Part shown: piece by piece, positions 1 through 39,320 of the stretch
Layout: each line of letters starts with the position of its first letter
Numbering within the stretch: the first letter of the stretch is position 1
From: a virus
Length of the DNA stretch: 39,320 nt
Reading direction: 5' to 3' (one strand)
IMG/VR virus record: IMGVR_UViG_3300045988_148041
Location: 1 to 39,320 of that record
Translations under genes and position numbers: made by a program
The notes under the pieces: model-generated
Database searches by the model: none
What the model saw: the letters and a program-made list of their open reading frames with translations, nothing else
Told to the model about the DNA's origin: nothing

Positions 1-99
1 GTTTTTTTTGTTTTGCAAATCAATTTCTTTTGCTCGTTTTTCCCAATATACAGGGGAAGAAAGCTTCCCCCAATATTTCTCATCTTTAAGGTTGATAGA
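1..99. repeat. 99-bp terminal direct repeat, identical to 39222-39320. It is consistent with a circular-assembly k-mer overlap, so the window is a closed circle of about 39,221 bp.
   Basis: Exact identity of 1-99 with 39222-39320 read from the sequence. The head-morphogenesis ORF (38340-39239) continues across the junction. Confidence 0.9.
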
Positions 100-4328: not shown

Positions 4329-4952
4329 TTATTTTCTTTTTGATTTCTTCACGTGACTAATCTTAACCATTAAGTCCACGACATTTATTGCGGTTTCAGT
4401 TAACTCCTTATTATCTTGAATTAAACCATTTTGATTTAATCTCACAAGTTGCGCTCTACTTACCATAATTAAATTATCTACTGCGATATTGCTTTTGTCG
4501 CCATCAGCGAATATCAGCGCATAACCTTTGGGTACGGCTCCGTTGTGTTGTTCCCAAACCCACCGATGCTTTAATTTCCACACATTAGGGTCTGCAACCT
4601 TTACCTCTGTATACCCGTCGCGATTAACTCTCTCACTGCCTACTGGTCGATACGTTGCTGGTCTGTGCCCCTTTTTAAACGCCGTCTCTTTGCCATAATT
4701 AAACCCTGTCTTGCCTTTATTGAAAGGCACACTACCTTTTTGGAATTGCCCTGTAAAACCTGTTTTAAAGCCATTCGACTTTATGGCTCTCGATATTTGC
4801 GTCACCACTAATTCAAGCCCGAATTTCTCATTAACTAATTCCATAATCTCTTTATAATGCCTACCTGGGGTTATTTCCCCTAAGTAGGCTTTTTGTTCTT
4901 CCGTCCAAACATGTCTTACTGAATTTTTAACTCCTTTTGGTCTCCCTGTCAT
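4329..4952 (-). CDS. HNH endonuclease (HNH_3-type), packaging-associated
   Basis: C-terminal motif RDGYTEVKV...HRWVWEQHNGAVPKGYALIFADGDKSNIAVDNL. Sits upstream of terS, as is typical of cos-type phages. Confidence 0.75.
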   Translation of the reverse strand: MTGRPKGVKNSVRHVWTEEQKAYLGEITPGRHYKEIMELVNEKFGLELVVTQISRAIKSNGFKTGFTGQFQKGSVPFNKGKTGFNYGKETAFKKGHRPATYRPVGSERVNRDGYTEVKVADPNVWKLKHRWVWEQHNGAVPKGYALIFADGDKSNIAVDNLIMVSRAQLVRLNQNGLIQDNKELTETAINVVDLMVKISHVKKSKRK

Positions 4953-5782: not shown

Positions 5783-6385
5783 TTACATAGCATATTCGCA
5801 GTTACATCCTTCTTTTCCAACTTCCACCATGTCACACACCGGCGGAATGAAATGATTTTCTAAAAAGTCGCGCAATTTACAATCACTTCTGTCTTTGGTG
5901 CATCCTCTACATTCTGCATATAATTTCCCATCAACCAAACTGAACAGTTCTTCAATCGTTAACTGAACATCGCCTAGTTTGTTGACCATTCTTTCTAACT
6001 TTTTAATTTGATAATCGTCAGCCACACGCAACTCCCACTTCATCATCTTCTTAGCAATAGTTTCCTTAGCTTTACGGTCTAGATTGTCCTCTATAAAGCT
6101 AGTCAAGAATTTTCGTTGGTACGTTGTCGCCATCTTTAAGTATTTGATTTGCTCTTTGGTAATCATTCCGCTTTTTTCAAATCTCTCCCACATCGGAACG
6201 CCATCTCCCTTTTCGTGTAGCGATCTTATTCCCATCATCAGTTGATGAGTCGCCGATAGCATAATGATTAAATTTTGCTCATCTTGATTAAGGTAACCCC
6301 TTCTCACTTTTTTTTCTCGCACGTTAATTCCATCTTTATACTTCATGAATTGTTTTTTCATAATTAAGCTCCTTTTCTTCCCCAA
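5783..6385 (-). CDS. hypothetical protein with a C-terminal Cys cluster
   Basis: 200 aa. C-terminus CRGCTKDRSDCKLRDFLENHFIPPVCDMVEVGKEGCNCEY. Confidence 0.45.
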   Translation of the reverse strand: MGKKRSLIMKKQFMKYKDGINVREKKVRRGYLNQDEQNLIIMLSATHQLMMGIRSLHEKGDGVPMWERFEKSGMITKEQIKYLKMATTYQRKFLTSFIEDNLDRKAKETIAKKMMKWELRVADDYQIKKLERMVNKLGDVQLTIEELFSLVDGKLYAECRGCTKDRSDCKLRDFLENHFIPPVCDMVEVGKEGCNCEYAM

Positions 6386-7242
6386 TTTAGGCGTTTGATG
6401 CGGTGGTTAACCGCACCCCAACTTCGTCCTAATTCTTCTGCTATTTCTTTTTGCGTGTACCCTTTGAAAAATAAATCTAGCAACACCTTGTCCTCGCGTG
6501 GCGACCAATAATTAATTTCCTTATACGACTCACCTTGACGGTCTTTTTTTAACTTTTCTTCAAACCATTCAGGGTTTTTTTTATTTTTTTGCAAAAAAAT
6601 GTTTACCGTTAACTTTCTAGAGTCCCACAATTCTTGATTATCGCGAAGGAATTTGATGATCTCTTTCTCTTTAATGCAGTATGTTTTTCTCTTCAAAGAC
6701 CGGTTTTTCTTTGCGACTAAACCATATTTATTAATGAATACGCAAACCCTGTGCTTGCTGACGCCTAACAAATGAGCTAACTCTGTAGCCGTATATCCGT
6801 CACCAACTCGCGTGCCCAACCCTTCTTCAGACGCTTTCTTCAATACCGCTTCTTCTGAGCGATTAATCATTTCAGCAATCACTTTTGGTTTTTTTATTCC
6901 CCACCATTGGTGTAGATATTCAAGTTCTTCATCTGACCAAAACACGCGACGTTTCACACCTAACATAGTAGCCCTATGTTTTATTGCAGTTCTAGTCCTA
7001 CCTAACTTTTCTGCTAATTCATCTAAATTCGCTGTTGCATACTCTTCCCGTATGATCGCTAACTCGTCTTCTGTCCATATATCATCACGCTTAGTTAGTC
7101 CAAGATTGCAACACTTTTTTTCAACCGCTTTTTTGGTTCTTCCAAAACGCTCCGCGATTTCTTCAATCGCCATGCTACCATAATTAGCTTTCAGAAATTC
7201 ATATTCCTCAATAGTCCAAATACGTCCTCCTGCCACGTCCAA
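6364..7242 (-). CDS. DNA-binding protein with five tandem HTH repeats (Myb/SANT- or sigma-R4-like)
   Basis: Five repeats of the pattern W-x-EE-L-x(8-12)-IAE-LGR-x(3)-A-x(3). Examples: WTIEEYEFLKANYGSMAIEEIAERFGRTKKAV, WTEDELAIIREEYATANLDELAEKLGRTRTAI, WSDEELEYLHQWW..., WSPREDKVLLDLFFKGYTQKEIAEELGRSWGAV. Confidence 0.5.
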   Translation of the reverse strand: MDVAGGRIWTIEEYEFLKANYGSMAIEEIAERFGRTKKAVEKKCCNLGLTKRDDIWTEDELAIIREEYATANLDELAEKLGRTRTAIKHRATMLGVKRRVFWSDEELEYLHQWWGIKKPKVIAEMINRSEEAVLKKASEEGLGTRVGDGYTATELAHLLGVSKHRVCVFINKYGLVAKKNRSLKRKTYCIKEKEIIKFLRDNQELWDSRKLTVNIFLQKNKKNPEWFEEKLKKDRQGESYKEINYWSPREDKVLLDLFFKGYTQKEIAEELGRSWGAVNHRIKRLNWGRKGA

Positions 7243-7270: not shown

Positions 7271-7699
7271 TTAAAATGGTAACTCTGAGTCACCTATATT
7301 AATCGCTGATGCGGTTGCACTCATGCCCCAATCGTAATTCGCATATTGATTTTGTTGCTTTTGTTCAAAGCGAACTTCTGCTACTGTTTTTTCTTGTTGT
7401 CTGGTACCTAAAAATTCAACCTCATTAGCAATAACTTTTGTAAATGAACGTTTTTGACCGTCTTTTTCATAGTTTTCAACTGAAATTCGTCCATTTACTG
7501 CGATTTGACTACCTTTAGATTGGAATTTAACTAAATTCTCTGCTGTTTTCCCCCACACTTGCACTGGGATGAAATCTGCGCCATCATTTCCGTACTTATT
7601 AACCGCTAAATTGAATTGGACCACTGATTTACCGTTAGTTGTTTGTTGCATGTTTAAGTCGTTGCTGATACGACCAATTAAAGTTACGTTATTCATCAC
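7271..7699 (-). CDS. ssb: single-stranded DNA-binding protein
   Basis: OB-fold N-terminus MMNNVTLIGRISNDLNMQQTTNGKSVVQFNLAVN, Q/N-rich linker, acidic tail DSELPF. Confidence 0.8.
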   Translation of the reverse strand: MMNNVTLIGRISNDLNMQQTTNGKSVVQFNLAVNKYGNDGADFIPVQVWGKTAENLVKFQSKGSQIAVNGRISVENYEKDGQKRSFTKVIANEVEFLGTRQQEKTVAEVRFEQKQQNQYANYDWGMSATASAINIGDSELPF

Positions 7700-8112
7700 A
7701 TTTCCTCCAATGGAATTAATTTTATTTTTGCTTCTTCTGTTTCACCATAAAACTTCTTAACCTCTAGCTCAACGATCTGCTTATCATCGCCGTATGCCGC
7801 CCCGTTTAGGGCATCTAACAATGACTTTGCTAAGTTATCAGTATCAGGCGTCACCATAGGGCGTATATAACCCTCTAATTTGCGTTTTTTTACTAACTTG
7901 CTATCTGACTTAGGGACTTTCATAAAAACCTCAATTTCGGCACGTATTGAGCATTTTAGTGGCTCCCATTTATAAATGTCGATGTAGTCTTGGTAACAAC
8001 TCTTTACAAATCTTTCATAATCTACAGTCGGTTTTGGTGTGTACGTTCTACCGTTTGCAAATCGAGGTCTTTGCTTTGCCTGAACCTTCCCTGGAATTTT
8101 AAACTCTCTCAT
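7696..8112 (-). CDS. rusA: RusA-family Holliday junction resolvase
   Basis: MREFKIPGKVQAKQRPRF...YTPKPTVDYE...PDTDNLAKSLLDALNGAAYGDDKQIV matches the RusA signature layout. Confidence 0.8.
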   Translation of the reverse strand: MREFKIPGKVQAKQRPRFANGRTYTPKPTVDYERFVKSCYQDYIDIYKWEPLKCSIRAEIEVFMKVPKSDSKLVKKRKLEGYIRPMVTPDTDNLAKSLLDALNGAAYGDDKQIVELEVKKFYGETEEAKIKLIPLEEM

Positions 8113-8549
8113 TTATTAGTCCCCTCTGCTATTTTTTTAAGTAACCGCTCGTCTTGAATATATAAATGCGTCAACTTTTGGCTCCCCTTAAATTCACTAA
8201 CATCAAACCCTAGATTTTTTAGTGCTTTGATGAACTCAATAGATATCGTGCCGAACGAAAGCCAATAACTCATTGTTGCTTGATTAACTCCAAATACATC
8301 CGCCAGTTCACGATACGTTAAATTATTTTTTGCTTTGAAATCAGCCACTCTCGTTCCTGGTTCCACATCCAATAATAATTCCACAATATCTCTGCTTGGC
8401 TTGTTAGCCTGTTGTGGCGTAACCTCATATTTGAAGGTCCACAATCCGTCTTTCTTATACGAATAAAATTCTGCTTTAAAGCTCTTTAAAATTTCACGCA
8501 CAATAGTAGCTTGTATCTCGTCATAGCAATGCACCACTCTCTCCCTCAT
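8109..8549 (-). CDS. hypothetical HTH-containing protein
   Basis: 146 aa. LTYRELADVFGVNQATMSYWLS is HTH-like. Confidence 0.4.
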   Translation of the reverse strand: MRERVVHCYDEIQATIVREILKSFKAEFYSYKKDGLWTFKYEVTPQQANKPSRDIVELLLDVEPGTRVADFKAKNNLTYRELADVFGVNQATMSYWLSFGTISIEFIKALKNLGFDVSEFKGSQKLTHLYIQDERLLKKIAEGTNK

Positions 8550-8552
8550 CTA

Positions 8553-8768
8553 CTATTCCTCCACGTGCGAGAATCGTTCAATATCTTCAATAATGTAGAA
8601 ATCATCAGGATCAAACTCCTCCACGATGGTTCTGAAATCACGCACTCTTACATCGACTCCGTAAGTAGCGCATTCTGCAACAACATCTTCAATTTGATAT
8701 TTTTTTGAAATAATAGTATTTCCATAATGCTTTAATGCGTAAACTTGATACGATTTTAAAATTTCCAT
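8553..8768 (-). CDS. hypothetical protein
   Basis: 71-aa ORF. Confidence 0.35.
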   Translation of the reverse strand: MEILKSYQVYALKHYGNTIISKKYQIEDVVAECATYGVDVRVRDFRTIVEEFDPDDFYIIEDIERFSHVEE

Positions 8769-8944
8769 CCTCTTTCTCCCCTTCTATCATTTTGTTGGTA
8801 ATAAGCACCATGTCCCGTGTCACACTCAAACTCTGTTCTTTTTTGAGCATATAATTTTAATTTTTTCTCTCTATAAAGCAGATAATGCTCACAATAGCTA
8901 TGACAATTAACACGTCTATCGTTGCAATCCTTGCATCTTGGCAT
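8756..8944 (-). CDS. small Cys-rich protein
   Basis: 62 aa with CKDCNDRRVNCHSYCEHY...C. Confidence 0.3.
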   Translation of the reverse strand: MPRCKDCNDRRVNCHSYCEHYLLYREKKLKLYAQKRTEFECDTGHGAYYQQNDRRGERGWKF

Positions 8945-8953
8945 TCTCTCACC

Positions 8954-9604
8954 TCAAAGATTTAGCTTTTTAGCCGTTGCCTCGTTAACCTTAATGCCTC
9001 GCACTTTGTATTTCTTTTCAAATGTCTTATGCCCGATTTGATGGCACTCGGTGTGGTGTGTTCGACATAAGCAAATTAAATCTGATTTAGTATGATCATG
9101 ATGATTTCTGTCTCCGCCCATCCCAATCAAATTTGTATGATGGTGTATATCCCCTTTTTCGCCACATATAGCGCATTTTCGATGTAGTAGGCATAAATAG
9201 AGGTAGTTGTTAATTTCTCTCGCCATATCGACTGTATTTGCGTCTAAGGGGATGTCCCATTCAAAACAAAATTTCAAGATGTATTCAATAAAGTATCTTG
9301 CTGTCGTCATATCTACATTCGACAAACTGAAATACTCCCTATCTTCATCAATCATGAAACCAACTTTAAGGATATTTTCTTTCAAGTCCTCTACGTCGTG
9401 ACCAGTATACGAACTAATATCTCGACAAAGAGCATATATCTTTTTTCGTTGATCACTTGATATTCTTCTTCCGTCATCGACTCTGATTTCACCGTGCATC
9501 ACCTCGGCTATATAATTTTCATTGATGCAATCGCCTGGAATGTGGCACTTAAGCCACGCTCCACGCTCATCTAGTTGGTAATCCCAAAAAACTGCTTTAA
9601 GCAT
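8954..9604 (-). CDS. HNH nuclease-domain protein
   Basis: CAICGEKGDIHHHTNLIGMGGDRNHHDHTKSDLICLCRTHHTECH (HNH motif). Confidence 0.5.
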   Translation of the reverse strand: MLKAVFWDYQLDERGAWLKCHIPGDCINENYIAEVMHGEIRVDDGRRISSDQRKKIYALCRDISSYTGHDVEDLKENILKVGFMIDEDREYFSLSNVDMTTARYFIEYILKFCFEWDIPLDANTVDMAREINNYLYLCLLHRKCAICGEKGDIHHHTNLIGMGGDRNHHDHTKSDLICLCRTHHTECHQIGHKTFEKKYKVRGIKVNEATAKKLNL

Positions 9605-10181
9605 TTCTATCAGGCTTTTTACTCAACATCTCGATTAATCCATCTGCTTGTTGCTCATTTAATTGTGATAAATCATTCACTTTATAAGTCGATTTGATAA
9701 ATAGCATGACTGCATTGGCATCCACGTCTTTTTTAGCGATCAAAGCCTCGACTTTGTTTAATTTCACATTAATTTTAGTTTTAGATGGCTTTGGTTCTTC
9801 CTTACCGGTTGTAGCTTCCAAACCATCTGACTCCACAATTTCAAAAGCATTCACCCACAAATAACGTCTTAGATAGGTTTGAACTGCTCCTAAGTTTTGT
9901 ACTGCGTGGCACCCCTTTAAAGTAGCTTCCGACATTGGAGACGTAAACACCATTTCTTCATCGGGATTTTCTGAATTAGTAATAGTAAGCGTGGCTTCGT
10001 CTTTACCAAAGTTGATGCGGCTACATAAGTTGTATTTGTCTAACAAAGCATTGATCGTTGGTAAGAAATCACCTAACTCAAAATAGTGATACCCTGCGAA
10101 TTTATTGTGACCTGATTTCTTCAATGGTTTCTCTTGGAACTCACAACGTGCTTTTTGCATTTTGCTGTAAATATTACTCAT
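9597..10181 (-). CDS. erf: ERF-family single-strand annealing protein
   Basis: KKSGHNKFAGYHYFELGDFLPTINALL and AVQTYLRRYLWVNAF match the ERF N-terminal core. Confidence 0.7.
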   Translation of the reverse strand: MSNIYSKMQKARCEFQEKPLKKSGHNKFAGYHYFELGDFLPTINALLDKYNLCSRINFGKDEATLTITNSENPDEEMVFTSPMSEATLKGCHAVQNLGAVQTYLRRYLWVNAFEIVESDGLEATTGKEEPKPSKTKINVKLNKVEALIAKKDVDANAVMLFIKSTYKVNDLSQLNEQQADGLIEMLSKKPDRNA

Positions 10182-10396
10182 TACTCTACCTCCAGGCTTA
10201 ACATCACTTTTTTATTATTTCTCTCAAAACAGCGAACTAACGTCACATCTAAATGTGTTACACGCTTATCACCGTGCAACTCTACTGCCTTATCATTAGC
10301 CATCACCACGATCTTGTTATCGATAACTAAAACAATTTTGTCGTCATACGCCTTATTAAGCTCAATCATTTGTGCCAGTGTTGGATATTTTGTCAT
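10181..10396 (-). CDS. hypothetical protein
   Basis: 71 aa. Strong RBS AAGGGGGAAATGAT upstream of the ATG. Confidence 0.4.
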   Translation of the reverse strand: MTKYPTLAQMIELNKAYDDKIVLVIDNKIVVMANDKAVELHGDKRVTHLDVTLVRCFERNNKKVMLSLEVE

Positions 10397-10485
10397 ATCA
10401 TTTCCCCCTTAAAATCAGCTTTCTATCTTCCTAAAATTTATTTTTTGATGTATAATAGGCTTATCCAAAATATTAATTTCCGCCG

Positions 10486-10520
10486 AATCACATTGTGTCC
10501 GAAGCAATGTGATTTTTTTT
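10486..10520 (+). terminator. plus-strand rho-independent terminator (orphan, may end a short antisense RNA)
   Basis: Perfect 10-bp stem AATCACATTG/CAATGTGATT, 9-nt loop, then T8 on the plus strand only. A TATAAT at 10451-10456 lies about 40 nt upstream. Confidence 0.5.
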
Positions 10521-10522
10521 AT

Positions 10523-11329
10523 TTACAAAATAACTTCATCTTTAAATCGATAATTCTTGCTACTGTCTTTTCCAACCTGGATGCAGTAACTTTTTGCTTT
10601 TTCTTTCATCCGCCCAGCAATCGCTTCATCAATATCTCGCAAATCATTTAGTAGCAATTCTGATGAGATAATTGTCACCGAGTTAGTGTTATAACGCTCG
10701 TTGATTAATTGAAATGCGATATTTACATCACTGTCCGTCACTTTACCTTTGAACAAATCGTCAATGTATAAGATTTCCGCTTTCGCATACTCATTAAAGA
10801 ATTCATCACGATCAAGGTCATATTTCATTCGTTTTAATCTATCCACGAACTCATTCCAAATCATGTATTTAACTTGACGATACTCCTTTAATCTTTGGTT
10901 ACAAATCGAAGCGCATACCATCGACTTACCAATACCGCTTTGTCCTAAAGCCATAAACCACTCTGTATCGGCTTTTAAGATGTAGTCCTTAACTTTATCC
11001 CTCATAGCAACTTGAAACGGCTCTACGGCCTTAAAATCGCGTAATTTGTAGGATAACAACTCACCCATTCCGCTTAATTCTGCATTTTTCATTGCTTTTC
11101 GTACTTTCATACACTCGCAATGGACGATATATGATGAATCTGTTTCTTTATGGTAGTGAGTAATAAACCCTCGATTTAAGCATTTATCGCATTCAAAGCC
11201 TTTTAGGCTTCCAGTTCGTTCATTGTCTAGCTCGACTAATAACTCTGTTGTCGATTTGTCTTTAGAATATGAGTAATCCAAATTCATCTCGCTTGTTGCC
11301 TTCTTCATCAACTCTGAAAGACTTTGCAT
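10523..11329 (-). CDS. DnaC/IstB-like AAA+ helicase loader with an N-terminal zinc finger
   Basis: Walker A GQSGIGKS, Walker B LYIDDL. N-terminal CDKC...HCEC. Confidence 0.65.
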   Translation of the reverse strand: MQSLSELMKKATSEMNLDYSYSKDKSTTELLVELDNERTGSLKGFECDKCLNRGFITHYHKETDSSYIVHCECMKVRKAMKNAELSGMGELLSYKLRDFKAVEPFQVAMRDKVKDYILKADTEWFMALGQSGIGKSMVCASICNQRLKEYRQVKYMIWNEFVDRLKRMKYDLDRDEFFNEYAKAEILYIDDLFKGKVTDSDVNIAFQLINERYNTNSVTIISSELLLNDLRDIDEAIAGRMKEKAKSYCIQVGKDSSKNYRFKDEVIL

Positions 11330-12059
11330 TTTGTTTCTCCCCCTTAACAGTCTTGTTATCTAACGGAAATATCCCTTTCCATCCGTAAATAATTGATTTT
11401 TCTAAAATTTGAATTTTTTCTAAATCGTTCGTTGCTATTTTGTCTAACTTGTTTACAATCAACTGAATAGCTTTTAACGTTGGATAAGGTTTTAGCGTCT
11501 TTCTCATTTCCAAAAAGTCATTGAGTGTGTTTAATAAATTTTCGTTAGTTGTATAAGAAGTAAATATGTTTTGGAAATCAACGTCAGTTGGTTTCTTTTT
11601 TATATTTTTTTCTTTTTTATTATTAAATTTATTATTAAATACTTTATTATTATCCTCCGTGATTTCGTGGATAGGGGTATCCATTATTTCGTGGATAGGT
11701 CTCCCGTTTTTGATGGATAGGTCTCCATTATTTTTTCCATACCCACCAGGCAAATATCGAGTCCCAAACGCACTCAGATAAATCCGTCTTTGCTGAATTT
11801 CTTTGCTATTTTCTTTGTAAATTAATTCAGTTTTGATGTAGTCTTTTTTCTCTAATGTCGAAACCCATTTGGAGATTGTCTTTTTATCGACACCGTATAA
11901 ATTAGAGAAATAACTATTCGAAGCCCAACAATAACCTCGTTCATTTGTCATGGCTGTTATTTCAGCAAATAGTAATTTAGCGTTAGGCGTTAACTCTTTG
12001 TCATATCTAACGTTGGCTGGAATAATTGCGAAAAAATTTTTTTGCTCTGCATCCATCAC
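11262..12059 (-). CDS. phage replisome organizer / DnaD-like replication initiation protein
   Basis: N-terminus NFFAIIPANVRYDKELTPNAKLLFAEITAM is the characteristic motif. A linker region contains internal iterons (see the repeat feature at 11661-11730). Confidence 0.75.
   Translation of the reverse strand: MMDAEQKNFFAIIPANVRYDKELTPNAKLLFAEITAMTNERGYCWASNSYFSNLYGVDKKTISKWVSTLEKKDYIKTELIYKENSKEIQQRRIYLSAFGTRYLPGGYGKNNGDLSIKNGRPIHEIMDTPIHEITEDNNKVFNNKFNNKKEKNIKKKPTDVDFQNIFTSYTTNENLLNTLNDFLEMRKTLKPYPTLKAIQLIVNKLDKIATNDLEKIQILEKSIIYGWKGIFPLDNKTVKGEKQNAKSFRVDEEGNKRDEFGLLIF
11661..11730. repeat. probable phage origin: three ~22-25-bp iterons inside the replisome-organizer gene
   Basis: Direct repeats gatttcgtggataggggtatccatta / tttcgtggataggtctcccgttttt / gatggataggtctccatta with core GTGGATAGG. 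They encode the PIHEIMDTPIHEIT repeat in the protein. Confidence 0.6.
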
Positions 12060-14435: not shown

Positions 14436-14747
14436 TTAAAGGACTGTTATCTCTGTTATTTGTTCTAAGCCATCTTTGATATGCATTGTTTTTAAATCTA
14501 TGAGCTTTTTATTTAATAATTCAGACATTATTTTATCGATTTCTGTTTTTGGCTCGCTAAAACATTCGTATAAATGTTTATTCGTGATGATATCGTCATC
14601 CGCAAAAGTAAGCAGCGTTAAATACACCGCAATTTCCTCACATTTGAGACCTTGATTAAAAAACGTCCCATCCTTAACTAAAATATTGTTTTCAGTTGTC
14701 ATATGTTTTGATTTATTTATCACTTTAATTTTTGTGTTTTTAAACAT
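14436..14747 (-). CDS. hypothetical protein downstream of the iteron array
   Basis: 103-aa ORF. No recognisable motif. Confidence 0.4.
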   Translation of the reverse strand: MFKNTKIKVINKSKHMTTENNILVKDGTFFNQGLKCEEIAVYLTLLTFADDDIITNKHLYECFSEPKTEIDKIMSELLNKKLIDLKTMHIKDGLEQITEITVL

Positions 14748-14838
14748 TTCCAGTTCTCCTTTTTTTCGCGCGCGTGTAGTTAATAATATAAATAAATATA
14801 TTTAACAGCTTATTTATTTAACTACAATATATATTTTT

Positions 14839-14968
14839 GGGTAAACTTTTTAGTTTATAGGGGGTAAACTTTTTAGTTCAGTGGGTTAAACTCAAAAGTT
14901 TAGTGGGTATATACGGGGTTAAACTTTTTAGTTCAGTGGGGGGAGGGTTAAACTTTTTAGTTTAGTGG
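14839..14968. repeat. iteron array: five direct repeats of about 22 bp (plasmid-type origin or iterated protein-binding site)
   Basis: GGGTAAACTTTTTAGTTTATAG (14839), GGGGTAAACTTTTTAGTTCAGTGG (14861), GTTAAACTCAAAAGTTTAGTGGG (14885), GGGGTTAAACTTTTTAGTTCAGTGG (14915), GGGTTAAACTTTTTAGTTTAGTGG (14945). Spacing is 22, 24, 30 and 30 bp. Intergenic, flanked by AT-rich DNA. Confidence 0.7.
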
Positions 14969-14982
14969 GCTTCTCCACAAAA

Positions 14983-15342
14983 TTACTCGAAGTGTTTGCG
15001 GTCAAGCATATCGTACAATAGTGTTTTATAAGCAATCCCTGTTCTGTAGTATGTGAATGTCCCTTTACTATTTTTTTCAAGATGAAATTCTAACACTTTG
15101 CAGTCGCATAATTTTTTAAACCTTCTTCTCAAAGCTATTTTGTTATTTATTTTTAAAATAGGTAAGTCGTCTATGACTTTTTCGTAATTGACCCAATAAT
15201 AGACAGTGTCATTAAAAATTGCTTCTTGCATGCGATCTGTATTTCTAAAGTCAACGAACCAACGTAACAAAATAAGGTCATTCATATCCAACCCATAGGC
15301 TACAGCTATTTTTTGGTGATAATCTAAAATTGATAATTTCAT
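14983..15342 (-). CDS. small putative DNA-binding protein adjacent to the iterons (candidate iteron-binding initiator or regulator)
   Basis: Probable start MKLSILDYHQKIAVAYGLDMNDLILLRWFV after the RBS AGGAGGA. Basic C-terminal half. Function inferred from position only. Confidence 0.35.
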   Translation of the reverse strand: MKLSILDYHQKIAVAYGLDMNDLILLRWFVDFRNTDRMQEAIFNDTVYYWVNYEKVIDDLPILKINNKIALRRRFKKLCDCKVLEFHLEKNSKGTFTYYRTGIAYKTLLYDMLDRKHFE

Positions 15343-15380
15343 ATAAAAAAGTCCTCCTGGTGCTATAAATTTAGTAGCAA

Positions 15381-15563
15381 ACAAAAGGACTCCCACAAAA
15401 GTTTAACCAAAAATAGAATAAAAGGGTTGAAAATTGGTTAAAATGATATTATAATTACAAACGAACTTAATAAAAAGGTCATTAATTACGTTTGTAATTA
15501 ATTTATATTTTCTTTCGCTATTAGACTTCCACTCGGCTGCCAAACTTTGTGGGAGTCTTTTCA
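15381..15563. promoter_or_regulatory. regulatory region with nested inverted repeats
   Basis: AAAGGACTCCCACAAAAGTTT (15383-15403) is the near-reverse complement of AAACTTTGTGGGAGTCTTT (15543-15561). An inner 9-bp inverted repeat TTACAAACG...CGTTTGTAA (15448-15492) sits between them. Confidence 0.4.
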
Positions 15564-15611
15564 TTTACTAAAAAGAATGTTATCAAATATTGTCACAAAT
15601 TACAATAAAAA

Positions 15612-15646
15612 AAATAAGGGTTATCCACAACGGATACCCTTTTTAT
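15612..15646. terminator. bidirectional intrinsic terminator after the FtsK/Replic_Relax operon
   Basis: GGGTTATCC-ACAAC-GGATACCC followed by TTTTTATT. An A-run on the opposite side. Confidence 0.6.
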
Positions 15647-15675: not shown

Positions 15676-16278
15676 TTATCTAATAAATGTATACTTCAAG
15701 TTAGAGAAGTTGCTCCAATCAGGTTTTATCCATATGCACCCGATATCAGGTTTTTTCTCGCACACCGATACCAAACACATCGGATGTTGCATTTTATATC
15801 GTCCTGCTTTCAAATCGTTATATAGACGATTATATGCATCTGTGTTAGTGAATGGCTTTGTTAAATCTATCTCAACGAGTGCGCAATAGGTTTCATCACC
15901 GTACTTAAAAGTTACCAACATATCGGGTCTGATATGGTATCTTTCCTCCAACTTCTTATACTCTACCTCGGTTTCATCTAGTATGATTTCGAAACCATCG
16001 ACTTTCATCCTGCTTAAAAAATCAGTCATCATCAATCTATGTTTAGTTTTGGTTGGATTTTTGCCGATGTAGTAAATATAAGATTGCCCCACGTACTCGC
16101 GCACTCTATGGACTTGTTTTTGGTGCTTGATGATCTCTTGCGTTCTCTTGTGCGCAACATTTAATGATGATTTCTCATTACGTGTCCAGTAAATCAATCG
16201 TGAAGCTATTTGTGCATTTAAGATAAAGTTTTTTTCCAAATATCTGATTAACTCTAAATCTCTAGTTGTTAACCCCAT
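15676..16278 (-). CDS. Replic_Relax (replication-relaxation) family protein
   Basis: N-terminal winged helix LTTRDLELIRYLEKNFILNAQIASRLIYW...SLNVAHKRTQEII. C-terminal nuclease-like RPDMLVTF..CALVEIDLTK. Overlaps the upstream FtsK-like gene by 17 nt. Confidence 0.6.
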   Translation of the reverse strand: MGLTTRDLELIRYLEKNFILNAQIASRLIYWTRNEKSSLNVAHKRTQEIIKHQKQVHRVREYVGQSYIYYIGKNPTKTKHRLMMTDFLSRMKVDGFEIILDETEVEYKKLEERYHIRPDMLVTFKYGDETYCALVEIDLTKPFTNTDAYNRLYNDLKAGRYKMQHPMCLVSVCEKKPDIGCIWIKPDWSNFSNLKYTFIR

Positions 16279-17467
16279 AAATTAACACTTCCCCTTTTAA
16301 ATTGCTCATTTTCGGCTCATTTTTAGGCTTTTCGACTTCGGTAGTAGTTTTAACAACAGATGGTTTTTTCGAGGTTCTAACGGTCTTTAAATGGTCTTTA
16401 ATGATGTTTTCAACGTCATCGTCAGATGTTATTAGCGTTTGCCCTTCTTGAATTTGCCCACCTAGACTAAATAATGCCCGTCCTTTAGCTGCTAATTTTT
16501 CTGCTCCCGGTTGGTCTAGTATCACGCTAGAGTTAACAGAATCGACTGTGTGAAAACAAATTCTATTATCGATGTTAGCTTTAATTCGTGAGTCGATGAT
16601 TTTAGAGTCAAAGCGTTGGCTTGTGAAGATATAGAACACTCCAACAGCGCGACTAATGGCTAGCGACTTAATAAGTGTCGTTTTCAAATCTTTGCTTTGA
16701 TCAATCAAAATTGTGAACTCTTCTATGATGACGAATTTCGGTTTTATTTTTTTATCATTATTTTTATTATGATCCAACCAATTTTTGGAGTCTGAGTCGT
16801 TGATTATATTCAATCTATCCTCTATCTCAGTGTAAATTCTATTAATCTCCGTCTCTGCCTTATCAGGTGCAATAGTGAATGAATTGGTTTGTCTAATTCT
16901 TTTGAATGAATTTAATTCAACCCCACCTTTGAAATCGAATAATTCAAATTCACTTTCAGGATAGTTGATTAATATTTGTAAAATTAAACTGGTCAGAAAT
17001 ACCGATTTCCCCCATCCTGTCGCTCCCGCAATTAGAGTGTGGGGCATCGAAACGAAATCAAGTGTAATCCCTTTAAAATCGCCATTCTCTACGCCTATTG
17101 CGGCTGCTACTTGCATCCCAGGTCTATCATTTGTAATGACTTTATCAAAAGGTATGCTCGAAGGTAGTTTTTTTGTTTCTTCTTTTAATTTTATAAAGTA
17201 ATTAAAATTATTATTGATGATCTCAACTTCACTTTTAACGATATTTTCAATTTTCCCTTTTAAATCTTGTAGGTCTTTGAAACTCTTACCGTTGTTTAAT
17301 CCTATTCCGTATGTTTTCGTTTTTCTGTCGTGAAATTTGATGTAACCTATCCCCTCTAGTAGTTGACTCAACGGTGATGACATATCTTTAATCCCTCCAC
17401 CTAATTCCGATAATTTTAAAGCTCCTAACATAACCGTACCAATCGCCCAAGGCATCCACCATACCAT
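16262..17467 (-). CDS. FtsK/SpoIIIE-family membrane-anchored DNA translocase-like ATPase (TcpA/TraB-like)
   Basis: N-terminal TM helix WWMPWAIGTVMLGALKL. Walker A GATGWGKSVFLTSLI. Walker B KFVIIEEF. RBS GGAGG 7 nt before the ATG. Confidence 0.75.
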   Translation of the reverse strand: MVWWMPWAIGTVMLGALKLSELGGGIKDMSSPLSQLLEGIGYIKFHDRKTKTYGIGLNNGKSFKDLQDLKGKIENIVKSEVEIINNNFNYFIKLKEETKKLPSSIPFDKVITNDRPGMQVAAAIGVENGDFKGITLDFVSMPHTLIAGATGWGKSVFLTSLILQILINYPESEFELFDFKGGVELNSFKRIRQTNSFTIAPDKAETEINRIYTEIEDRLNIINDSDSKNWLDHNKNNDKKIKPKFVIIEEFTILIDQSKDLKTTLIKSLAISRAVGVFYIFTSQRFDSKIIDSRIKANIDNRICFHTVDSVNSSVILDQPGAEKLAAKGRALFSLGGQIQEGQTLITSDDDVENIIKDHLKTVRTSKKPSVVKTTTEVEKPKNEPKMSNLKGEVLIYGVNN

Positions 17468-17558
17468 AACAAAACCTCCAAATGTTTAATTATTAGTAAG
17501 TAATTGGTCATTGGAGGTATTTTTATGTAATTTTGTTTTGCGTGTATAACCAAATATT

Positions 17559-18375: not shown

Positions 18376-18404
18376 ATAAAAAAAGACTTGGAATAACCAA
18401 GTCT
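18376..18404 (-). terminator. intrinsic terminator of the parMR operon
   Basis: On the minus strand: AGACTTGG-TTATT-CCAAGTCT followed by TTTTTTT. Confidence 0.7.
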
Positions 18405-18618
18405 ACCAGTCTTTTTCTTTAAATAGATCCTTTGTTTCTTGTGGCACATTGAATGCGTCCTCTTTGATGTTGCCACTTACTTTATCAGCTAACGTTGTTA
18501 AAATAAAAGAAGTAAAGTTGCGTTTGTCAGCTTTAGCTGCTTCCTCGATAGCTTGTAACAACGCTTCGTCACCTTCATAAAAAGTGATCGTCTTTTTAGC
18601 AATTATTTTACGCGCCAT
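18403..18618 (-). CDS. parR: ParR-like ribbon-helix-helix partition adaptor
   Basis: 71 aa. Beta-strand KTITFYEGDEAL then helices LQAIEEAAKADKRNFTSFILTTLADKV. Lies immediately downstream of parM. Confidence 0.5.
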   Translation of the reverse strand: MARKIIAKKTITFYEGDEALLQAIEEAAKADKRNFTSFILTTLADKVSGNIKEDAFNVPQETKDLFKEKDW

Positions 18619-18622
18619 ATTA

Positions 18623-19585
18623 TTACCCCTTTTTGATCAATGTGTATTTATAGAATCCTCTTGCATTCGCGATTTGTGCTTCGGGATAAACTATCGCATT
18701 TGAACGTAATTTTATGTGATTTTTAATAGCCAAAGCTCCACCACCAGTATAGATAATTCTGTCATAGTGTGCTAAATTAATCCCACTTCGTCTGATAACA
18801 GTTTCTAAGGCTGATACGAAGTCTGTTTTAACTAAATCTAATTCTTCGGTGAAATCAAATGTTTCGCCGTATTTATGAATAATTGGCGAGATATCATCGC
18901 TCACATCGTTATGTGTAAAATGATAATCAGTCCCTTTGTATTTGTTGTTCATTTCACGAACTAAATCATTTACGATATCCATACAACCAGTGTCGTCACC
19001 TGCTAATTTCTCGACTTGCAACCCATTTGTGGCAAGTATATCCGTAGTTGAGTAACCAATATCAATCACAACGTAATTGAATTTGTTACGGTTGTTAACG
19101 ATTTGCAGTTTTTCATTGAAAACGAAGTCACATAGAGTCCCTAACGGCTCACACGCAACGAAAACATCTTGGATATTGATGACATATTCCTCAACAACAT
19201 CGTCAATTATAACGTTTATTGCATGGCGGCCAGTCAATTTTTTAACAATCTGTTTCTTTAGGTCGATTTTTTCAAAGTCCCTGCAAGGAACTCCAATAGT
19301 TAATGATACATTGCGCTCAGTGATGACCTGAGTAATCGCGATTAATAATTCTAAAAGATATTCTTTGCTTAAATAACGGTCAGAGCTACGTCCACCACTA
19401 CTGATCCCCGTTGTATCTAAAGTATATTGTTTCCCTTCATATTCATAGATTGTCCCAATACCACCTACGATATTAAATTCGCTTCCTGTCAAACGTTTTA
19501 ATTTGTTAGGGTATGTCAACTCTGTGTCATTGGATACAACTTTAATGAAGCCGTTTGCAACCTCTAGTCCTATTTTTTGACTCAT
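18623..19585 (-). CDS. parM: ParM/StbA-family actin-like segregation ATPase
   Basis: Phosphate-1 motif IGLEVANGFIKVV. Phosphate-2 motif VVIDIGYSTTDILA. Adenosine motif YTGGGALAI. Confidence 0.7.
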   Translation of the reverse strand: MSQKIGLEVANGFIKVVSNDTELTYPNKLKRLTGSEFNIVGGIGTIYEYEGKQYTLDTTGISSGGRSSDRYLSKEYLLELLIAITQVITERNVSLTIGVPCRDFEKIDLKKQIVKKLTGRHAINVIIDDVVEEYVINIQDVFVACEPLGTLCDFVFNEKLQIVNNRNKFNYVVIDIGYSTTDILATNGLQVEKLAGDDTGCMDIVNDLVREMNNKYKGTDYHFTHNDVSDDISPIIHKYGETFDFTEELDLVKTDFVSALETVIRRSGINLAHYDRIIYTGGGALAIKNHIKLRSNAIVYPEAQIANARGFYKYTLIKKG

Positions 19586-21368: not shown

Positions 21369-22121
21369 TTAGCTATGAAATTTTTTGGTTTCTGATGAAT
21401 ATAAGATAGGATTTTTCGTTAAACCACAAGAATATACTTTATTGCATAATATTGATAAATAATCATCCACTGAACGTTGTCGTGTTATATTAGGTAAAAA
21501 TTGTTTAATTTTACGTTCCATTTGTGAATGATCGTATCCCTCTTTAAAGAATAATCTTGAAAAAGCCGTGATAAAATGGCTTTGCTTGTAGTTTCTAAAT
21601 TCATGGAACGATTCGAGGGCCATAAAAAATAATACCACAGAATCTAATCCATCTAACGACACTGCGCCTGTTCTAAATTCTCGTTTCAGTTGCGGTATAT
21701 TTTTTTCTTGAACGACAGATAATATCTTTAGAAAATCATTAATACTTATATCGAAATCGTTTGTGATTTCTGCTATTTTTAGATACTTCTCTTCTTTTAA
21801 TTCGCAATAGCGGTGAAGATAATCTGCATCATACCAACGTCTTCCACCATTAACATTAGCTCTTATTACGTCATCAATGCTATATCCATTCTCCATAATA
21901 TAATAGACGGGTAATTTCAAATATTCACACGCCTTAAATCTATGTTGACCATCGATAATTTCAAATTTTTCATTTACTGTAATTGGAATGATTAACTGTT
22001 TCTCCTTCATACTCTCAATTATTTGATTAAGATTCGTTGGATTTGTTCTTCTGTTTCCGCCCATGATTTTAAACAATGAGTAGTCGTTTGTTTTCATTAC
22101 ACTTGTGTAAACTTCAATCAT
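21369..22121 (-). CDS. ParB/Sulfiredoxin-like nuclease-domain protein with a DGQHR motif (DndB-like)
   Basis: EIIDGQHRFKACEYLKLPVYYIM. Confidence 0.55.
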   Translation of the reverse strand: MIEVYTSVMKTNDYSLFKIMGGNRRTNPTNLNQIIESMKEKQLIIPITVNEKFEIIDGQHRFKACEYLKLPVYYIMENGYSIDDVIRANVNGGRRWYDADYLHRYCELKEEKYLKIAEITNDFDISINDFLKILSVVQEKNIPQLKREFRTGAVSLDGLDSVVLFFMALESFHEFRNYKQSHFITAFSRLFFKEGYDHSQMERKIKQFLPNITRQRSVDDYLSILCNKVYSCGLTKNPILYSSETKKFHS

Positions 22122-22650
22122 ATTTGTACCCTCCTGTAATATACCACTTTCTATAATCTTTTCTTTTACAATCCTTGCATTGATTCAAGTGACCGTCTTT
22201 CATGCCTTTGTTTTTGTTAAATTCGGACAGCGGTTTAGTTTCTCCACATTTGTTGCATTTTTTTGTTGCTTCTGAAATGGTTGCTTCTGAAATGGTTGCT
22301 TCTGAAATGGTTGCTTCTGAAATGGTTGCTTTCCTTTGGTTATAAGCATCTTTATACTTTTTTGCGCAAAACCTACAATAAGATTTAACGCCACTTTTGC
22401 TTTTTTTGTGTTTATTAAAGTAACTTAAAGGCAAGATTGTTTCGCATTGCGAACAAGTCTTGTAACCAGCAGGAGCTACGTCGTTGATTATCGGCCTTTT
22501 TAAGTTCAATTCACTTGCTTTAGTGTAGATCGATTTAATATCTCTTTCTAAAGCGTTCGATATTTCTTTTGTTGTGAACTCTGAACTTTTATATGCATAA
22601 CGCAAAAAAACAATCTCTTCTTCAGTCCATAATTTTCGCTTTTTTTCCAT
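22114..22650 (-). CDS. zinc-ribbon repeat protein with an ATISE pentapeptide tandem repeat
   Basis: Two CxxC-x(20-25)-CxxC modules (CSQCETILPLSYFNKHKKSKSGVKSYCRFC and CNKCGETKPLSEFNKNKGMKDGHLNQCKDC). N-terminal HTH-like WTEEEIVFL. The ATISE repeat is encoded by a 15-bp tandem repeat. Confidence 0.5.
   Translation of the reverse strand: MEKKRKLWTEEEIVFLRYAYKSSEFTTKEISNALERDIKSIYTKASELNLKRPIINDVAPAGYKTCSQCETILPLSYFNKHKKSKSGVKSYCRFCAKKYKDAYNQRKATISEATISEATISEATISEATKKCNKCGETKPLSEFNKNKGMKDGHLNQCKDCKRKDYRKWYITGGYKYD
22265..22330. repeat. 15-bp tandem repeat (GTTGCTTCTGAAATG), 4.4 copies, inside the CDS
   Basis: Read directly from the sequence. Confidence 0.9.
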
Positions 22651-24129: not shown

Positions 24130-25143
24130 TTAAGCTACATTTAGAAATGCTTCAATTAAATCATCAGCATCGCGATCATCATACAACGACACCATGTCTA
24201 ATGACTCCCAATTCACAATCGCTTTGATTAATTCAGGCGGATATCCTGCGCGACCTAACTCTGTACAGAAATTATGGCGTAGACAATGGAAATAAAAACT
24301 CACGTCAAACCAATTTCCAAACGTAACCGCCCACGATTTCAAAGTTTGGGTTTTCAACGGAACCCACTCTTCCGTTTTTTTATCATATTTAACAAATAAA
24401 TGCTGGATTTTATCGGGCACACCTAATCGCTTACGTTCTTCTAACCATAAGTTCAAATAAGGCTCAAATTTATCGATTAAAACGTATCTAGGTATTTGTT
24501 TACCCAACTTTCCTCTGCCCTTTGTACGGAGCTTTTCAGGCGTTTTCCAAAATTTATTCCACTTAACGCAATCGTCTGTGAAATAATTGCACTTGAATTG
24601 GACCAATTCCGATACTCGGCTACCACTAGCCCAGGCTAGAGCGAAAGCACACGCTTTTTGGTATTGTTTTTTCTCTACTAAGTGATCTAAGAATTTTTGG
24701 CACTGCTCATCTGAAAGAACTGTTTTTTCTCGCACATTTTCTCTAGCAGGAGCTTCGATTTTTAAAATAATATTTCTGAAACCTTTCCACTTAGGTTCTT
24801 CATCTAAAAAGTTTTCAATGTATTTACTTAAGCTAGATAACGATGATCTAACGCGTTTAATTCGCGCCGGAGATAACCCTTCACTTAACATATAGCCTTG
24901 GAAATTCAAGTAATCATTTTTCTTAACCTCGCAAAAGTCTTTATTTTGGCACTTATCACGGAACCAACTAAAGAAGATATATAAATCACTTCGATAATTT
25001 GTGACCGTTACAGGGCTTCTATCGACTCCTGTGCAATACATTAAGAAACTGTCAACCAACTGTAAATTTTCAGGATTAATCGTGCTAATGTCCGAACTCG
25101 CTAGCACACGCTTTGTTTTTCTAGTATTTTTTCTTTTACCCAT
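24130..25143 (-). CDS. tyrosine site-specific recombinase (Xer/Cre-like integrase or resolvase)
   Basis: SAM-like N-domain. Catalytic residues present: SGSRVSEL (R), HCLRHNF (H-x-x-R), and the nucleophile in ...MVSLYDD. No extended arm-binding N-terminus. RBS GGAGGG. Confidence 0.8.
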   Translation of the reverse strand: MGKRKNTRKTKRVLASSDISTINPENLQLVDSFLMYCTGVDRSPVTVTNYRSDLYIFFSWFRDKCQNKDFCEVKKNDYLNFQGYMLSEGLSPARIKRVRSSLSSLSKYIENFLDEEPKWKGFRNIILKIEAPARENVREKTVLSDEQCQKFLDHLVEKKQYQKACAFALAWASGSRVSELVQFKCNYFTDDCVKWNKFWKTPEKLRTKGRGKLGKQIPRYVLIDKFEPYLNLWLEERKRLGVPDKIQHLFVKYDKKTEEWVPLKTQTLKSWAVTFGNWFDVSFYFHCLRHNFCTELGRAGYPPELIKAIVNWESLDMVSLYDDRDADDLIEAFLNVA

Positions 25144-37503: not shown

Positions 37504-37650
37504 CCATACCGGAACTGTTAATGTGTTACCTGGACGCCCTTGTAATTCAGTACCAATCACTGCTAAAGGTGATAATTTGATTTTGTCCACTAATTTAGCG
37601 TCGATGTACTGTCCGACTACCTGTGGGTTTAATAAGTTAGATAATTTAGT
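37498..37650 (-). CDS. major capsid protein, exon 1 (N-terminal 50 aa)
   Basis: RBS GGAGG then ATG. MATTKLSNLLNPQVVGQYIDAKLVDKIKLSPLAVIGTELQGRPGNTLTVPVW is the typical capsid N-terminus. The in-frame stop appears only after the intron junction. Confidence 0.65.
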   Translation of the reverse strand, partial: TKLSNLLNPQVVGQYIDAKLVDKIKLSPLAVIGTELQGRPGNTLTVPVWS

Positions 37651-37676
37651 TGTTGCCATAATTTAAAACCTCCGTT

Positions 37677-39239: not shown

Positions 39240-39320
39240 ATCAATTTCTTTTGCTCGTTTTTCCCAATATACAGGGGAAGAAAGCTTCCCCCAATATTTC
39301 TCATCTTTAAGGTTGATAGA

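Follow-up and report, generated by a model that had tools for sequence, protein, structure and literature searches.

A coupled TcpA/FtsK-type ATPase and Replic_Relax-superfamily nuclease pair in a Turicibacter-type phage-plasmid

A two-gene arrangement, in which the gene of a membrane-anchored FtsK/SpoIIIE-like ATPase is followed by the gene of a small Replic_Relax-type protein, has already been mentioned in genome papers (PMC9658697, PMC11526630, PMC7685451). Its representatives among the phages and plasmid prophages of the Bacillus group include gp22-23 of gamma/Wbeta, gp67-68 of Andromeda, gp26-27 of Pony, and the pairs of pBFR_3 and RBClin15. Herein, a further pair of this kind is described, which is encoded by the IMG/VR virus record IMGVR_UViG_3300045988_148041, and the whole analyzed stretch of 39,320 nucleotides (nt) is referred to as the window. 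The window pair shares with its Bacillus-group counterparts an ATPase size of 380-440 amino acids (aa) with an N-terminal hydrophobic helix, an immediately downstream, overlapping gene for a 180-215-aa protein composed of a winged helix-turn-helix (wHTH) and a PD-(D/E)xK nuclease core, profile-level homology for both proteins, and the setting in a phage or phage-plasmid. The differences are found in the sequences, where the window ATPase is only ~26-32% identical and the window nuclease has no BLASTP-detectable similarity, and in the upstream neighbors, which are a Mrr-type nuclease and ParM/ParR partition genes in the window in contrast with the two small open reading frames (ORFs) and the divergent helix-turn-helix (HTH) regulator of the gamma-type cassettes.

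Among the proteins of solved structure, the best match of the window ATPase is TcpA from plasmid pCW3 of Clostridium perfringens, which is likewise a membrane-anchored FtsK-like motor devoid of a gamma domain. TcpA, however, is a protein of 527 aa with two N-terminal hydrophobic segments, resides in the tcp locus of a type IV secretion system (T4SS), and is partnered by the tyrosine-recombinase-like relaxase TcpM, whereas the window ATPase has 401 aa and one such segment, is accompanied by no T4SS, and is partnered by a protein of the PF13814 (Replic_Relax) type. PF13814 is the Pfam family of the MOBC relaxases (PMC5357655, PMC12857230), such as TraX of pAD1 with its pTEF1 homologue and MobC of CloDF13, which possess the same winged helix and PD-(D/E)xK core and are encoded just 3' of the gene of a DNA-pumping ATPase (PMC12857230). 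The TraX type differs from the window nuclease in its length (261 aa vs ~200 aa), in its VirD4-type coupling protein, and in its location in a conjugation locus. The described partnerships are distinct, too, because PF13814 relaxases are paired with VirD4-type coupling proteins, as in 71 integrative and mobilizable elements (IMEs) of Streptococcus suis (PMC12479173) and also in pTEF1, while TcpA-type coupling proteins are paired with rolling-circle-type relaxases (PMC5357655). The partner of the window ATPase, in contrast, is of the PF13814 type and belongs neither to Rep_trans nor to Rep_2. The membrane-anchored translocases FtsK and SpoIIIE have in common with the window ATPase the alpha/beta domains of the motor, but the gamma domain, the multi-pass N-terminal domain, and the long linker are missing from the latter. 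Finally, the Streptomyces TraB/clt system resembles the window pair in that a single FtsK-like motor moves plasmid double-stranded DNA (dsDNA) between compartments; in TraB, the C-terminal wHTH is part of the motor protein itself, and no partner nuclease is required.

Assignment, coupling and spread of the two proteins

The assignment of the larger protein to the FtsK/SpoIIIE family, which the original prediction had made from the sequence together with the two Walker motifs and a single N-terminal transmembrane helix, was borne out, and both ORFs were recovered with the positions and lengths that had been given (Table 1). The protein matches FtsK_SpoIIIE (PF01580, E 4.5e-16) and phrog_1358 'FtsK/SpoIIIE-like' (E 6.5e-62), with Walker A (GATGWGKS) at residues 148-155 and Walker B (FVIIEE(F)) at residues 245-251. 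In a sequence search of the PDB, the entries 6O1W-6O1Z, named 'DNA translocase coupling protein', were retrieved as the best match (89 bits), followed by FtsK (65 bits) and, at lower scores, EssC/EccC. These entries are identified as TcpA because a BLASTP comparison with the annotated pCW3 gene yields 32% identity over 269 aa (E 1e-27), an alignment which includes the region before Walker A. The AlphaFold model (pLDDT 82) is constructed by an N-terminal helix (residues 5-22), a small alpha/beta domain (30-95), the motor (119-360), and a disordered Lys/Glu-rich C-terminal tail (364-401). A Foldseek search with this model gave TcpA (E 5e-23) and dsDNA-bound FtsK motors (~2e-21), and far weaker values for HerA (3e-9 or weaker) and the packaging NTPase STIV2 B204 (3e-7). 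The placement in a packaging or HerA defense family, which had been named as an outcome that would speak against the prediction, was not obtained, both types of match being weak in the profile and fold searches. No FtsK alpha-domain match was found in Pfam, and a gamma winged helix is absent from both the Pfam matches and the AlphaFold model, which implies that the recognition of DNA would fall to the nuclease as a separate protein.

The N-terminal segment of the window ATPase is weakly to moderately hydrophobic (Kyte-Doolittle 19-residue mean of 1.26), and the corresponding value reaches at least 1.6 in 87 of 116 homologues, with a median of 1.78, the property being kept while the sequence drifts. 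Since this hydrophobicity is conserved in the homologues and AlphaFold places a helix at residues 5-22, a single membrane anchor is credible; one N-terminal hydrophobic segment is also present in most of the Bacillus-phage ATPases. The motor is nearer to TcpA/FtsK than to VirD4, and the conjugal coupling-protein models TraD and TrbE of NCBIfam gave marginal scores. Other affiliations were considered and rejected, namely the Streptomyces TraB type (NCBIfam plasmid_TraB, 11.8 bits, E 0.063, cut-off 800), the HerA type (PF01935 at E 0.094; NCBIfam HerA_antiphage at 16.3 bits vs 800; PADLOC HerA at E 1.7e-4 or weaker), and a chromosome translocase of the FtsK/SpoIIIE type, from which the window protein is set apart by the lack of both a gamma domain and a multi-pass N-terminal membrane domain. 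Accordingly, the comparison with TcpA/TraB and PF13814 that had been proposed as a check came out in favor of TcpA, in favor of PF13814 by way of the nuclease family described below, and against TraB.

On the evidence of sequence profiles, the family of the smaller protein belongs to PF13814, and the assignment holds at the level of the family. Taken alone, the window protein does not match PF13814 at E up to 10 (the Pfam gathering threshold being 25.3 bits), and its sole Pfam match is TnsA_N at E 0.035. PF13814 is matched, on the other hand, by 29 of the 33 close and 54 of the 90 diverse homologues scanned (E 0.01 or 0.001 or better), with a best E of 5.7e-12, and no other family was matched among the 90 diverse homologues. 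Moreover, hhalign aligned the family to a profile of nine Bacillus/Geobacillus/Clostridium PF13814 proteins at 94.7% (E 6e-8), a match spanning both the wHTH and the nuclease core. The homology is demonstrated through profiles because direct sequence searches with the window nuclease found nothing, neither by BLASTP against Bacillus-phage proteins nor by tblastn against phages, and a sequence-profile search of the PDB returned noise. The family comprises 74 homologues at 53-80% identity, and 347 representative clusters were collected by an exhaustive profile search, nearly all of them standalone proteins of 180-215 aa. Besides PF13814, a weak match to phrog_9381 'replication initiation by nicking' (E 3.6e-4) was recorded.

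Within the window protein (AlphaFold pLDDT 92.4), the N-terminal winged helix occupies residues ~1-75 and is followed by a C-terminal PD-(D/E)xK core with H80, E106, D119, E136, D138, and K141. Across the 90 diverse members, D119 and E136 show no variation and H80 almost none, while the closer set conserves the pattern H80-R81, E106, R117-P118-D119, and E136-x-D138-x-x-K141. This pattern agrees with the literature, in which Replic_Relax is placed in the PD-(D/E)xK superfamily with an N-terminal HTH fused to the core (PMC3424549). The predicted Replic_Relax winged helix with a nuclease-like C-terminus is therefore retained at the family level, the window copy by itself staying below PF13814, and the general view of a module for DNA recognition and DNA translocation is sustained by the families of both proteins and by TcpA as the closest solved relative.

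The ATPase and nuclease genes constitute one bicistronic, translationally coupled unit. The ribosome-binding site of the nuclease, AAGGGGAAG, sits within the 3' end of the ATPase gene, and its internal position together with the 17-nt overlap of the two genes suggests translational coupling. The operon is closed by an intrinsic terminator (fold energy of -11 to -14 kcal/mol, z -2.25), which was missed by a simple terminator scanner because its hairpin is bulged. In all 15 elements that were compared, the two genes overlap or abut (-1 to 95 nt), and their products co-diverge with a Pearson coefficient of 0.94 and a Spearman coefficient of 0.69 over 105 locus pairs, which are non-independent. 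In addition, the genes of more distant ATPase relatives, with an identity of ~45% in the aligned segment, are still followed by that of a nuclease homologue (hhalign probability of 100%).

The distribution of the pair is broad. A tblastn search with the ATPase yielded 401 phage records, 276 of which are from Bacillus, and 1034 plasmids, while at least 105 phage records of GenBank were retrieved with one Bacillus-phage PF13814 protein as the query; among the 60 rows listed, the gene overlapped by the PF13814 match bears the annotation FtsK/SpoIIIE, cell-division protein, or DNA translocase in 53. The phages with the pair include the Bacillus anthracis phages gamma, Wbeta, Cherry, and Fah, phBC6A51, phIS3501, the Andromeda-like siphoviruses, PM1, Geobacillus phages, and the Pony/Page podophages (gene maps were checked for Andromeda, PT9.1, Pony, gamma, phBC6A51, and BhaS-171). 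All lifestyles are represented, and the pair is usually located in the early region after the lysis cassette. With the pBFR_3 nuclease as the query, 129 Bacillaceae plasmids were obtained, on which PGAP names a 'replication-relaxation family protein' overlapping a 'FtsK/SpoIIIE domain-containing protein', whereas many phage records call the nuclease gene 'replication initiation protein' or 'plasmid replication-relaxation protein'. Considering these numbers and the mentions already published, the original view that canonical siphovirus genomes lack such pairs had to be abandoned. Pattern-based locus searches reach close relatives only, giving two viral loci and one genome fragment.

The hosts are mostly endospore-forming Bacillota of the genera Bacillus, Geobacillus, Clostridium, Paraclostridium, and Thermoanaerobacterium, along with other taxa; Turicibacter, too, is an endospore former. 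The named homologues of both the ATPase and the nuclease are from Turicibacter, and several contig records originate from pig-gut or goat-colon metagenomes, so a Turicibacter-like host lineage is suggested by these relatives. With its FtsK_SpoIIIE motor and N-terminal helix, its overlapping PF13814-type gene, both within the size ranges given above, and its location on a phage-plasmid of Turicibacter-type Bacillota, the window pair is a divergent Turicibacter-type member of a known cassette of Bacillota phages and plasmids. As a side observation, the PF13814 protein of two records named 'Staphylococcus phage MVC_VPHSA1/2' (OR670591.1, our locus L002, and OR670592.1) shares 99% identity with its counterpart in Bacillus phage DZ1, and the same gene order is found, which makes the Staphylococcus host label look doubtful.

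Relation to conjugation modules

The relationship with the MOBC relaxases is clearer for the Bacillus-phage nucleases than for the window family. The TraX-type protein of pTEF1, which is MOB-typed as MOBC, matches PF13814 (E 2e-6) and is aligned by hhalign to the Bacillus-phage nuclease profile at 82% (E 1e-5), whereas the direct match between the window family and TraX is weak (E 0.1-0.19, or E 3.7e-4 at a probability of 36%), and single-sequence hhalign comparisons of the window nuclease family with TraX or pBFR_3 were not significant. The MOB-suite types of seven plasmids bearing the pair or a close ATPase relative were inspected. Six of them, namely pBFR_3, C. perfringens p4, a Paraclostridium bifermentans plasmid, and three large Bacillus plasmids, are typed as non-mobilizable, none as MOBC, and one, a 90-kb plasmid of Bacillus mycoides, as mobilizable on the basis of a separate MOBP relaxase. 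No T4SS genes were found in the window or beside the pair at any locus examined. The pair resembles a module of coupling protein and relaxase in its gene order and protein families, yet it matches no described conjugative pairing. The original idea that such pairs represent the minimal transfer machinery of actinomycete and TcpA-type elements is contradicted by the separate partnerships of TcpA and of PF13814 described above, by the plasmid_TraB score far below its cut-off, and by the missing T4SS.

The phage-plasmid and its maintenance block

A 99-bp exact direct repeat is present at both ends of the window (1-99 and 39222-39320), which indicates a circular assembly and a complete genome of ~39.2 kb. 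This genome harbors an SPP1-type portal (E 3e-109), the large terminase subunit TerL (Terminase_3, E 7e-57), a Mu-F-like head protein, major head, scaffold, and tape-measure genes, and an endolysin, as well as the plasmid functions of an actin-like ParM with a small ribbon-helix-helix (RHH) protein and an iteron replicon. The element is a phage-plasmid, in accordance with the plasmid prophage of the original prediction, and is endowed with two replication systems, i.e., a phage-type module at 7271-12059 (O/DnaD-like initiator, DnaC-like loader, Erf, and SSB) and the compact plasmid-type replicon. Near-identical DNA is absent from the phage and plasmid collections, where the sole match is 50 bp to Acinetobacter phages.

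Table 1. Coordinates of the ATPase-nuclease operon and of the neighboring features in the window
Feature	Position	Strand	Basis or details
TcpA/FtsK-type dsDNA translocase ATPase, 401 aa	16262-17467	-	Pfam, PHROG, PDB, AlphaFold, Foldseek
Replic_Relax (PF13814) superfamily protein, 200 aa	15676-16278	-	family profiles, hhalign, AlphaFold
ATPase/nuclease gene overlap, 17 nt	16262-16278	-	sequence read
Intrinsic terminator closing the two-gene operon, bulged GC hairpin and U8	15605-15640	-	sequence, RNA fold
5' leader hairpin of the ATPase gene	17465-17527	-	inverted repeat; -19.2 kcal/mol, z -2.44
Membrane-anchored Mrr_cat restriction-type nuclease, 180 aa	17769-18311	-	PF04471 E 1.1e-28
Partition operon: ParM/ALP ATPase (18623-19585) and small RHH-like ParR candidate (18403-18618)	18403-19585	-	
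Terminator after the partition operon	18384-18404		terminator scan
Plasmid-type replicon downstream of the pair	14436-15342	-	weak phrog_428 and phrog_186 matches; iterons; sequence read
Five iterons, core TAAACTTTTTAGTT, spacing 22-33 bp	14837-14969	.	repeat search
Nested inverted repeats between operon terminator and Rep-like gene	15375-15570	.	repeat search

The block which surrounds the pair runs from ParM/ParR through the membrane Mrr nuclease and the ATPase-nuclease pair to the iteron replicon. The actin-like protein is supported by ALP_N (E 5.8e-11), phrog_691 'partition protein' (E 6e-44), and NCBIfam ParM (E 2.9e-19); a ParB-like protein at 21369-22121 on the minus strand (phrog_12305, E 3e-24) is encoded in addition to this ParM system. 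The Mrr protein, which displays a D...ExK motif and a hydrophobic segment at residues ~24-47 (Kyte-Doolittle value of 2.39), is encoded directly upstream of the ATPase, and the same position is held by its counterparts in the Turicibacter-type loci L003, L004, L018, and L019. Since a terminator scan found none between the Mrr and ATPase genes, the Mrr gene may share a transcription unit with the pair. In the Turicibacter-type elements, the order of ParM/ALP, small protein, Mrr (in the same four loci), ATPase, and nuclease is kept, and the block from ALP_N/ParM to the pair is conserved in L003, L004, and L018-L023 while the Rep protein beside it changes, being RepA_N/DnaB_2, HTH_36, or the small Rep plus iterons of the window. 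The possibility that the window Rep-like proteins are the two halves of the L003 RepA_N initiator was discarded, their similarity to it being nil.

Among the Bacillus elements, the pair of the Bacillus cereus phage-plasmid pBFR_3 is located near ParA. The gamma-type cassette of Bacillus plasmids harbors five genes, that is, two small ORFs, the ATPase, the nuclease, and the divergent HTH regulator, and is carried as well by large Bacillus plasmids that are not phages (L030-L033, 83-246 kb); on the 90-kb non-phage B. mycoides plasmid, ParM is followed by a replication initiator and then by the gamma-type cassette. The Mrr neighbor is absent from the Bacillus cassettes examined. It was also observed that in L033 the gamma-type cassette adjoins a replication initiator and ParM and lies upstream of a type I-C CRISPR-Cas locus.

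The local DNA sites were inspected as well. The replicon consists of a small Rep-like gene (14983-15342), the five iterons, an AT-rich stretch, and a wHTH/DnaD-like gene (14436-14747). The iterons fit a replication origin because they lie between the Rep-like gene and the AT-rich stretch, and they are assigned to the local replicon because their motif does not travel with the nuclease. As a nuclease-binding site, a candidate suggested by TraX, which binds five direct repeats, the iterons were rejected, for the motif was found in 0 of 29 related loci, and the iteron-free loci include ones with a 74%-identical nuclease but a different Rep. The nested inverted repeats, whose outer arms of 25 nt (15375-15399 and 15546-15570) are 84% complementary and whose inner 31-nt arms (15441-15511) are 77% complementary, could be either the promoter/operator of the rep gene or a target of the nuclease; a promoter-like site is located at 15427-15455 on the plus strand. 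No repeated cis site was found upstream of the ATPase gene, and no repeat common to the relatives was found downstream. In the 5' leader of the ATPase gene, the hairpin pairs an anti-Shine-Dalgarno CCUCC with the Shine-Dalgarno sequence and the AUG, which makes a translational brake on the ATPase possible; as a conserved regulator, the hairpin was dismissed, no comparable significant structure being present in 8 relatives.

Elsewhere in the window, the major capsid gene is split (35639-37659, minus strand), with exon 1 at 37498-37659 (53 aa) and exon 2 at 35639-36277, and exon 2 aligns to phrog_544 from profile position 54 onward only. An HNH homing-endonuclease ORF (36420-37331; phrog_559, E 1e-73) lies between the exons, as do two sub-threshold Rfam matches to group I introns (29.6 and 29.5 bits, E ~3e-5, gathering score 50), no Rfam family having exceeded the gathering threshold within the window. 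A group I intron that carries a homing endonuclease probably accounts for the interruption. More genes of the HNH, endonuclease VII, or Lar-like kind are found at 4329-4952, 6364-7242, and 22114-22650 on the basis of phrog_1891 (E 9e-78), a D5-like regulator with HNH pieces, and phrog_1035/phrog_5558, and the genome is rich in homing-type nucleases. A tyrosine recombinase (24130-25143, minus strand; Phage_integrase, E 9e-14), which could act in this ParM-bearing element as a Xer-like dimer resolvase or as an integrase, is located between the tail genes and the lysis region.

Possible roles of the cassette

The preferred, though still tentative, candidate for the role of the pair is to handle the episome after its replication, at the membrane or septum, for its inheritance. 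The nuclease would provide the sequence recognition that is absent from the pump, and would bind and then nick or cut a site on the DNA of the element itself. The DNA would subsequently be passed to the membrane-anchored pump, presumably hexameric, which would clear or move episome copies across the closing division septum, and possibly the sporulation septum, whereby the element would be inherited. Inheritance is favored in view of the partition and replication genes that accompany the pair in episomes. Packaging, replication initiation, and partition are encoded separately on the same element by TerL and the portal, by the O/DnaD-like initiator and its associates, and by ParM, respectively, and the roles of packaging, replication initiation, and defense would appear less likely than episome inheritance.

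Several observations weigh against this proposal. Temperate phages that integrate (gamma/Wbeta, phBC6A51, and BhaS-171) and phages reported as lytic carry the pair as well, and no annotated partition gene was found in the examined flanks of the Andromeda-like and Pony-type phages, from which it follows that plasmid inheritance cannot be its sole function. The ATPase of phage Fah, moreover, is a delayed-early lytic gene (PMC4113786). The presence in integrating and lytic phages and the delayed-early expression in Fah are the main weakness of the favored role. In addition, the catalytic residues of the nuclease are invariant, although a segregation pump has no obvious need for a nuclease, and repeat and motif comparisons identified no cis site for the latter. 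The argument from the endospore-forming hosts may reflect phylogeny and the sensitivity of single-query tblastn, and the literature offers nothing but speculation on the function of the pair (PMC4113786, PMC3359378, PMC11526630).

Conjugative mobilization, in which the nuclease acts as a MOBC-like relaxase nicking an origin of transfer (oriT) of the phage-plasmid and the ATPase acts as a coupling protein docking onto the T4SS of a co-resident plasmid or integrative and conjugative element (ICE), is considered unlikely, yet it is a serious rival. In its favor, the ATPase is closest to TcpA among solved structures, the catalytic residues of the nuclease are conserved, and inverted repeats lie just downstream of the pair. 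It also agrees with PF13814 being the MOBC family, with the match of the pTEF1 TraX-type protein to both PF13814 and the Bacillus-phage profile, with a gene order from coupling protein to relaxase as in pTEF1 and the ICEs and IMEs of Firmicutes, and with IMEs encoding just these two proteins being common (PMC5357655). However, neither the window nor the flanks of the pair at any locus examined contain T4SS genes, and the described PF13814 relaxases use VirD4 while TcpA uses rolling-circle-type relaxases (PMC12479173, PMC5357655). Six of the seven typed plasmids are non-mobilizable and the seventh owes its mobility to the MOBP relaxase, the direct profile match between the window family and TraX is not significant, the phage proteins have ~200 aa against the 261 aa of TraX, TcpA has two N-terminal hydrophobic segments against one, and the pair also exists in podophages and in reportedly lytic phages. 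A role in DNA processing during the lytic cycle, in which the nuclease nicks phage DNA for a rolling-circle switch or at intermediates and the ATPase organizes or moves replicating DNA at the membrane, is deemed quite improbable. It is compatible with the weak phrog_9381 match of the nuclease, the replication-type gene names in many phage records, the occurrence in phages of all lifestyles, usually early after the lysis cassette, and the delayed-early expression in Fah (PMC4113786). The gene names, however, are transferred annotation, the window already encodes an O/DnaD-like initiator, a DnaC-like loader, and a second, iteron-based replicon whose iterons do not co-occur with the nuclease in the relatives, FtsK-type motors translocate duplex DNA and are not replicative helicases, and the cassette resides also on large non-phage plasmids beside their own Rep.

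Exclusion or defense, in which the membrane pump and one or more nucleases would attack or expel incoming foreign DNA, is regarded as highly unlikely. Pairs of an ATPase and a nuclease are a common architecture of defense systems, the motor matches FtsK-like modules in PADLOC (SspH at E 4e-29 and mad8 at E 1.5e-26), and the membrane-anchored Mrr-type nuclease is a conserved upstream neighbor in the Turicibacter-type elements. Nevertheless, these PADLOC matches are confined to the motor domain of far larger proteins or of multi-gene systems, the SspH match covering profile positions 1536-1759 of 1766, and no other SspFGH or MADS component was detected among the five proteins scanned. For the nuclease, PADLOC gave no match, the HerA matches are weak (E 1e-4 to 1e-3; HerA_antiphage at 16 bits vs 800), and the Mrr neighbor is missing from the Bacillus cassettes examined; the stable position of the pair in the core early or maintenance region and its co-divergence with the element are unlike typical defense islands. 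The last candidate, a genome-packaging ATPase of the FtsK/HerA type as found in membrane-containing viruses, would accommodate the weak match of the ATPase to phrog_2666 'terminase large subunit' (E 6.9e-7) and the distant Foldseek match to STIV2 B204, but is effectively refuted by the canonical TerL (Terminase_3) and SPP1-type portal of the window; the TcpA/FtsK matches are many orders of magnitude stronger, and the cassette is also found on non-phage plasmids. Apart from these candidates, the cassette might be a self-contained, T4SS-independent device for the delivery of dsDNA, in which the nuclease would open the DNA of its element at a specific site and the pump would thread it through a septum, into the forespore and hence the spore or, in a TraB-like manner, into a neighboring cell, or a true set of coupling protein and relaxase that makes use of resident conjugation systems, which is likewise doubtful. 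If either delivery or mobilization were true, such phages would gain a route of transmission that is independent of virions, and the genome described here could spread without them.

As a single finding, the window pair is of little weight, since a pair that is already annotated in hundreds of phages and plasmids of the Bacillus group is thereby extended by one divergent branch, which is gut-associated and of the Turicibacter type. The module is more interesting as a class, being widespread, tightly coupled, and conserved in its catalytic residues, and it joins a conjugation-like DNA pump to a relaxase-family nuclease in a pairing that is undescribed in the conjugation literature. Knowledge of its function, for which episome inheritance, entry into spores, and virion-independent transfer are the candidates, would account for a feature that is conserved in many phages of Bacillota, among them gamma, the typing phage of B. 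anthracis.

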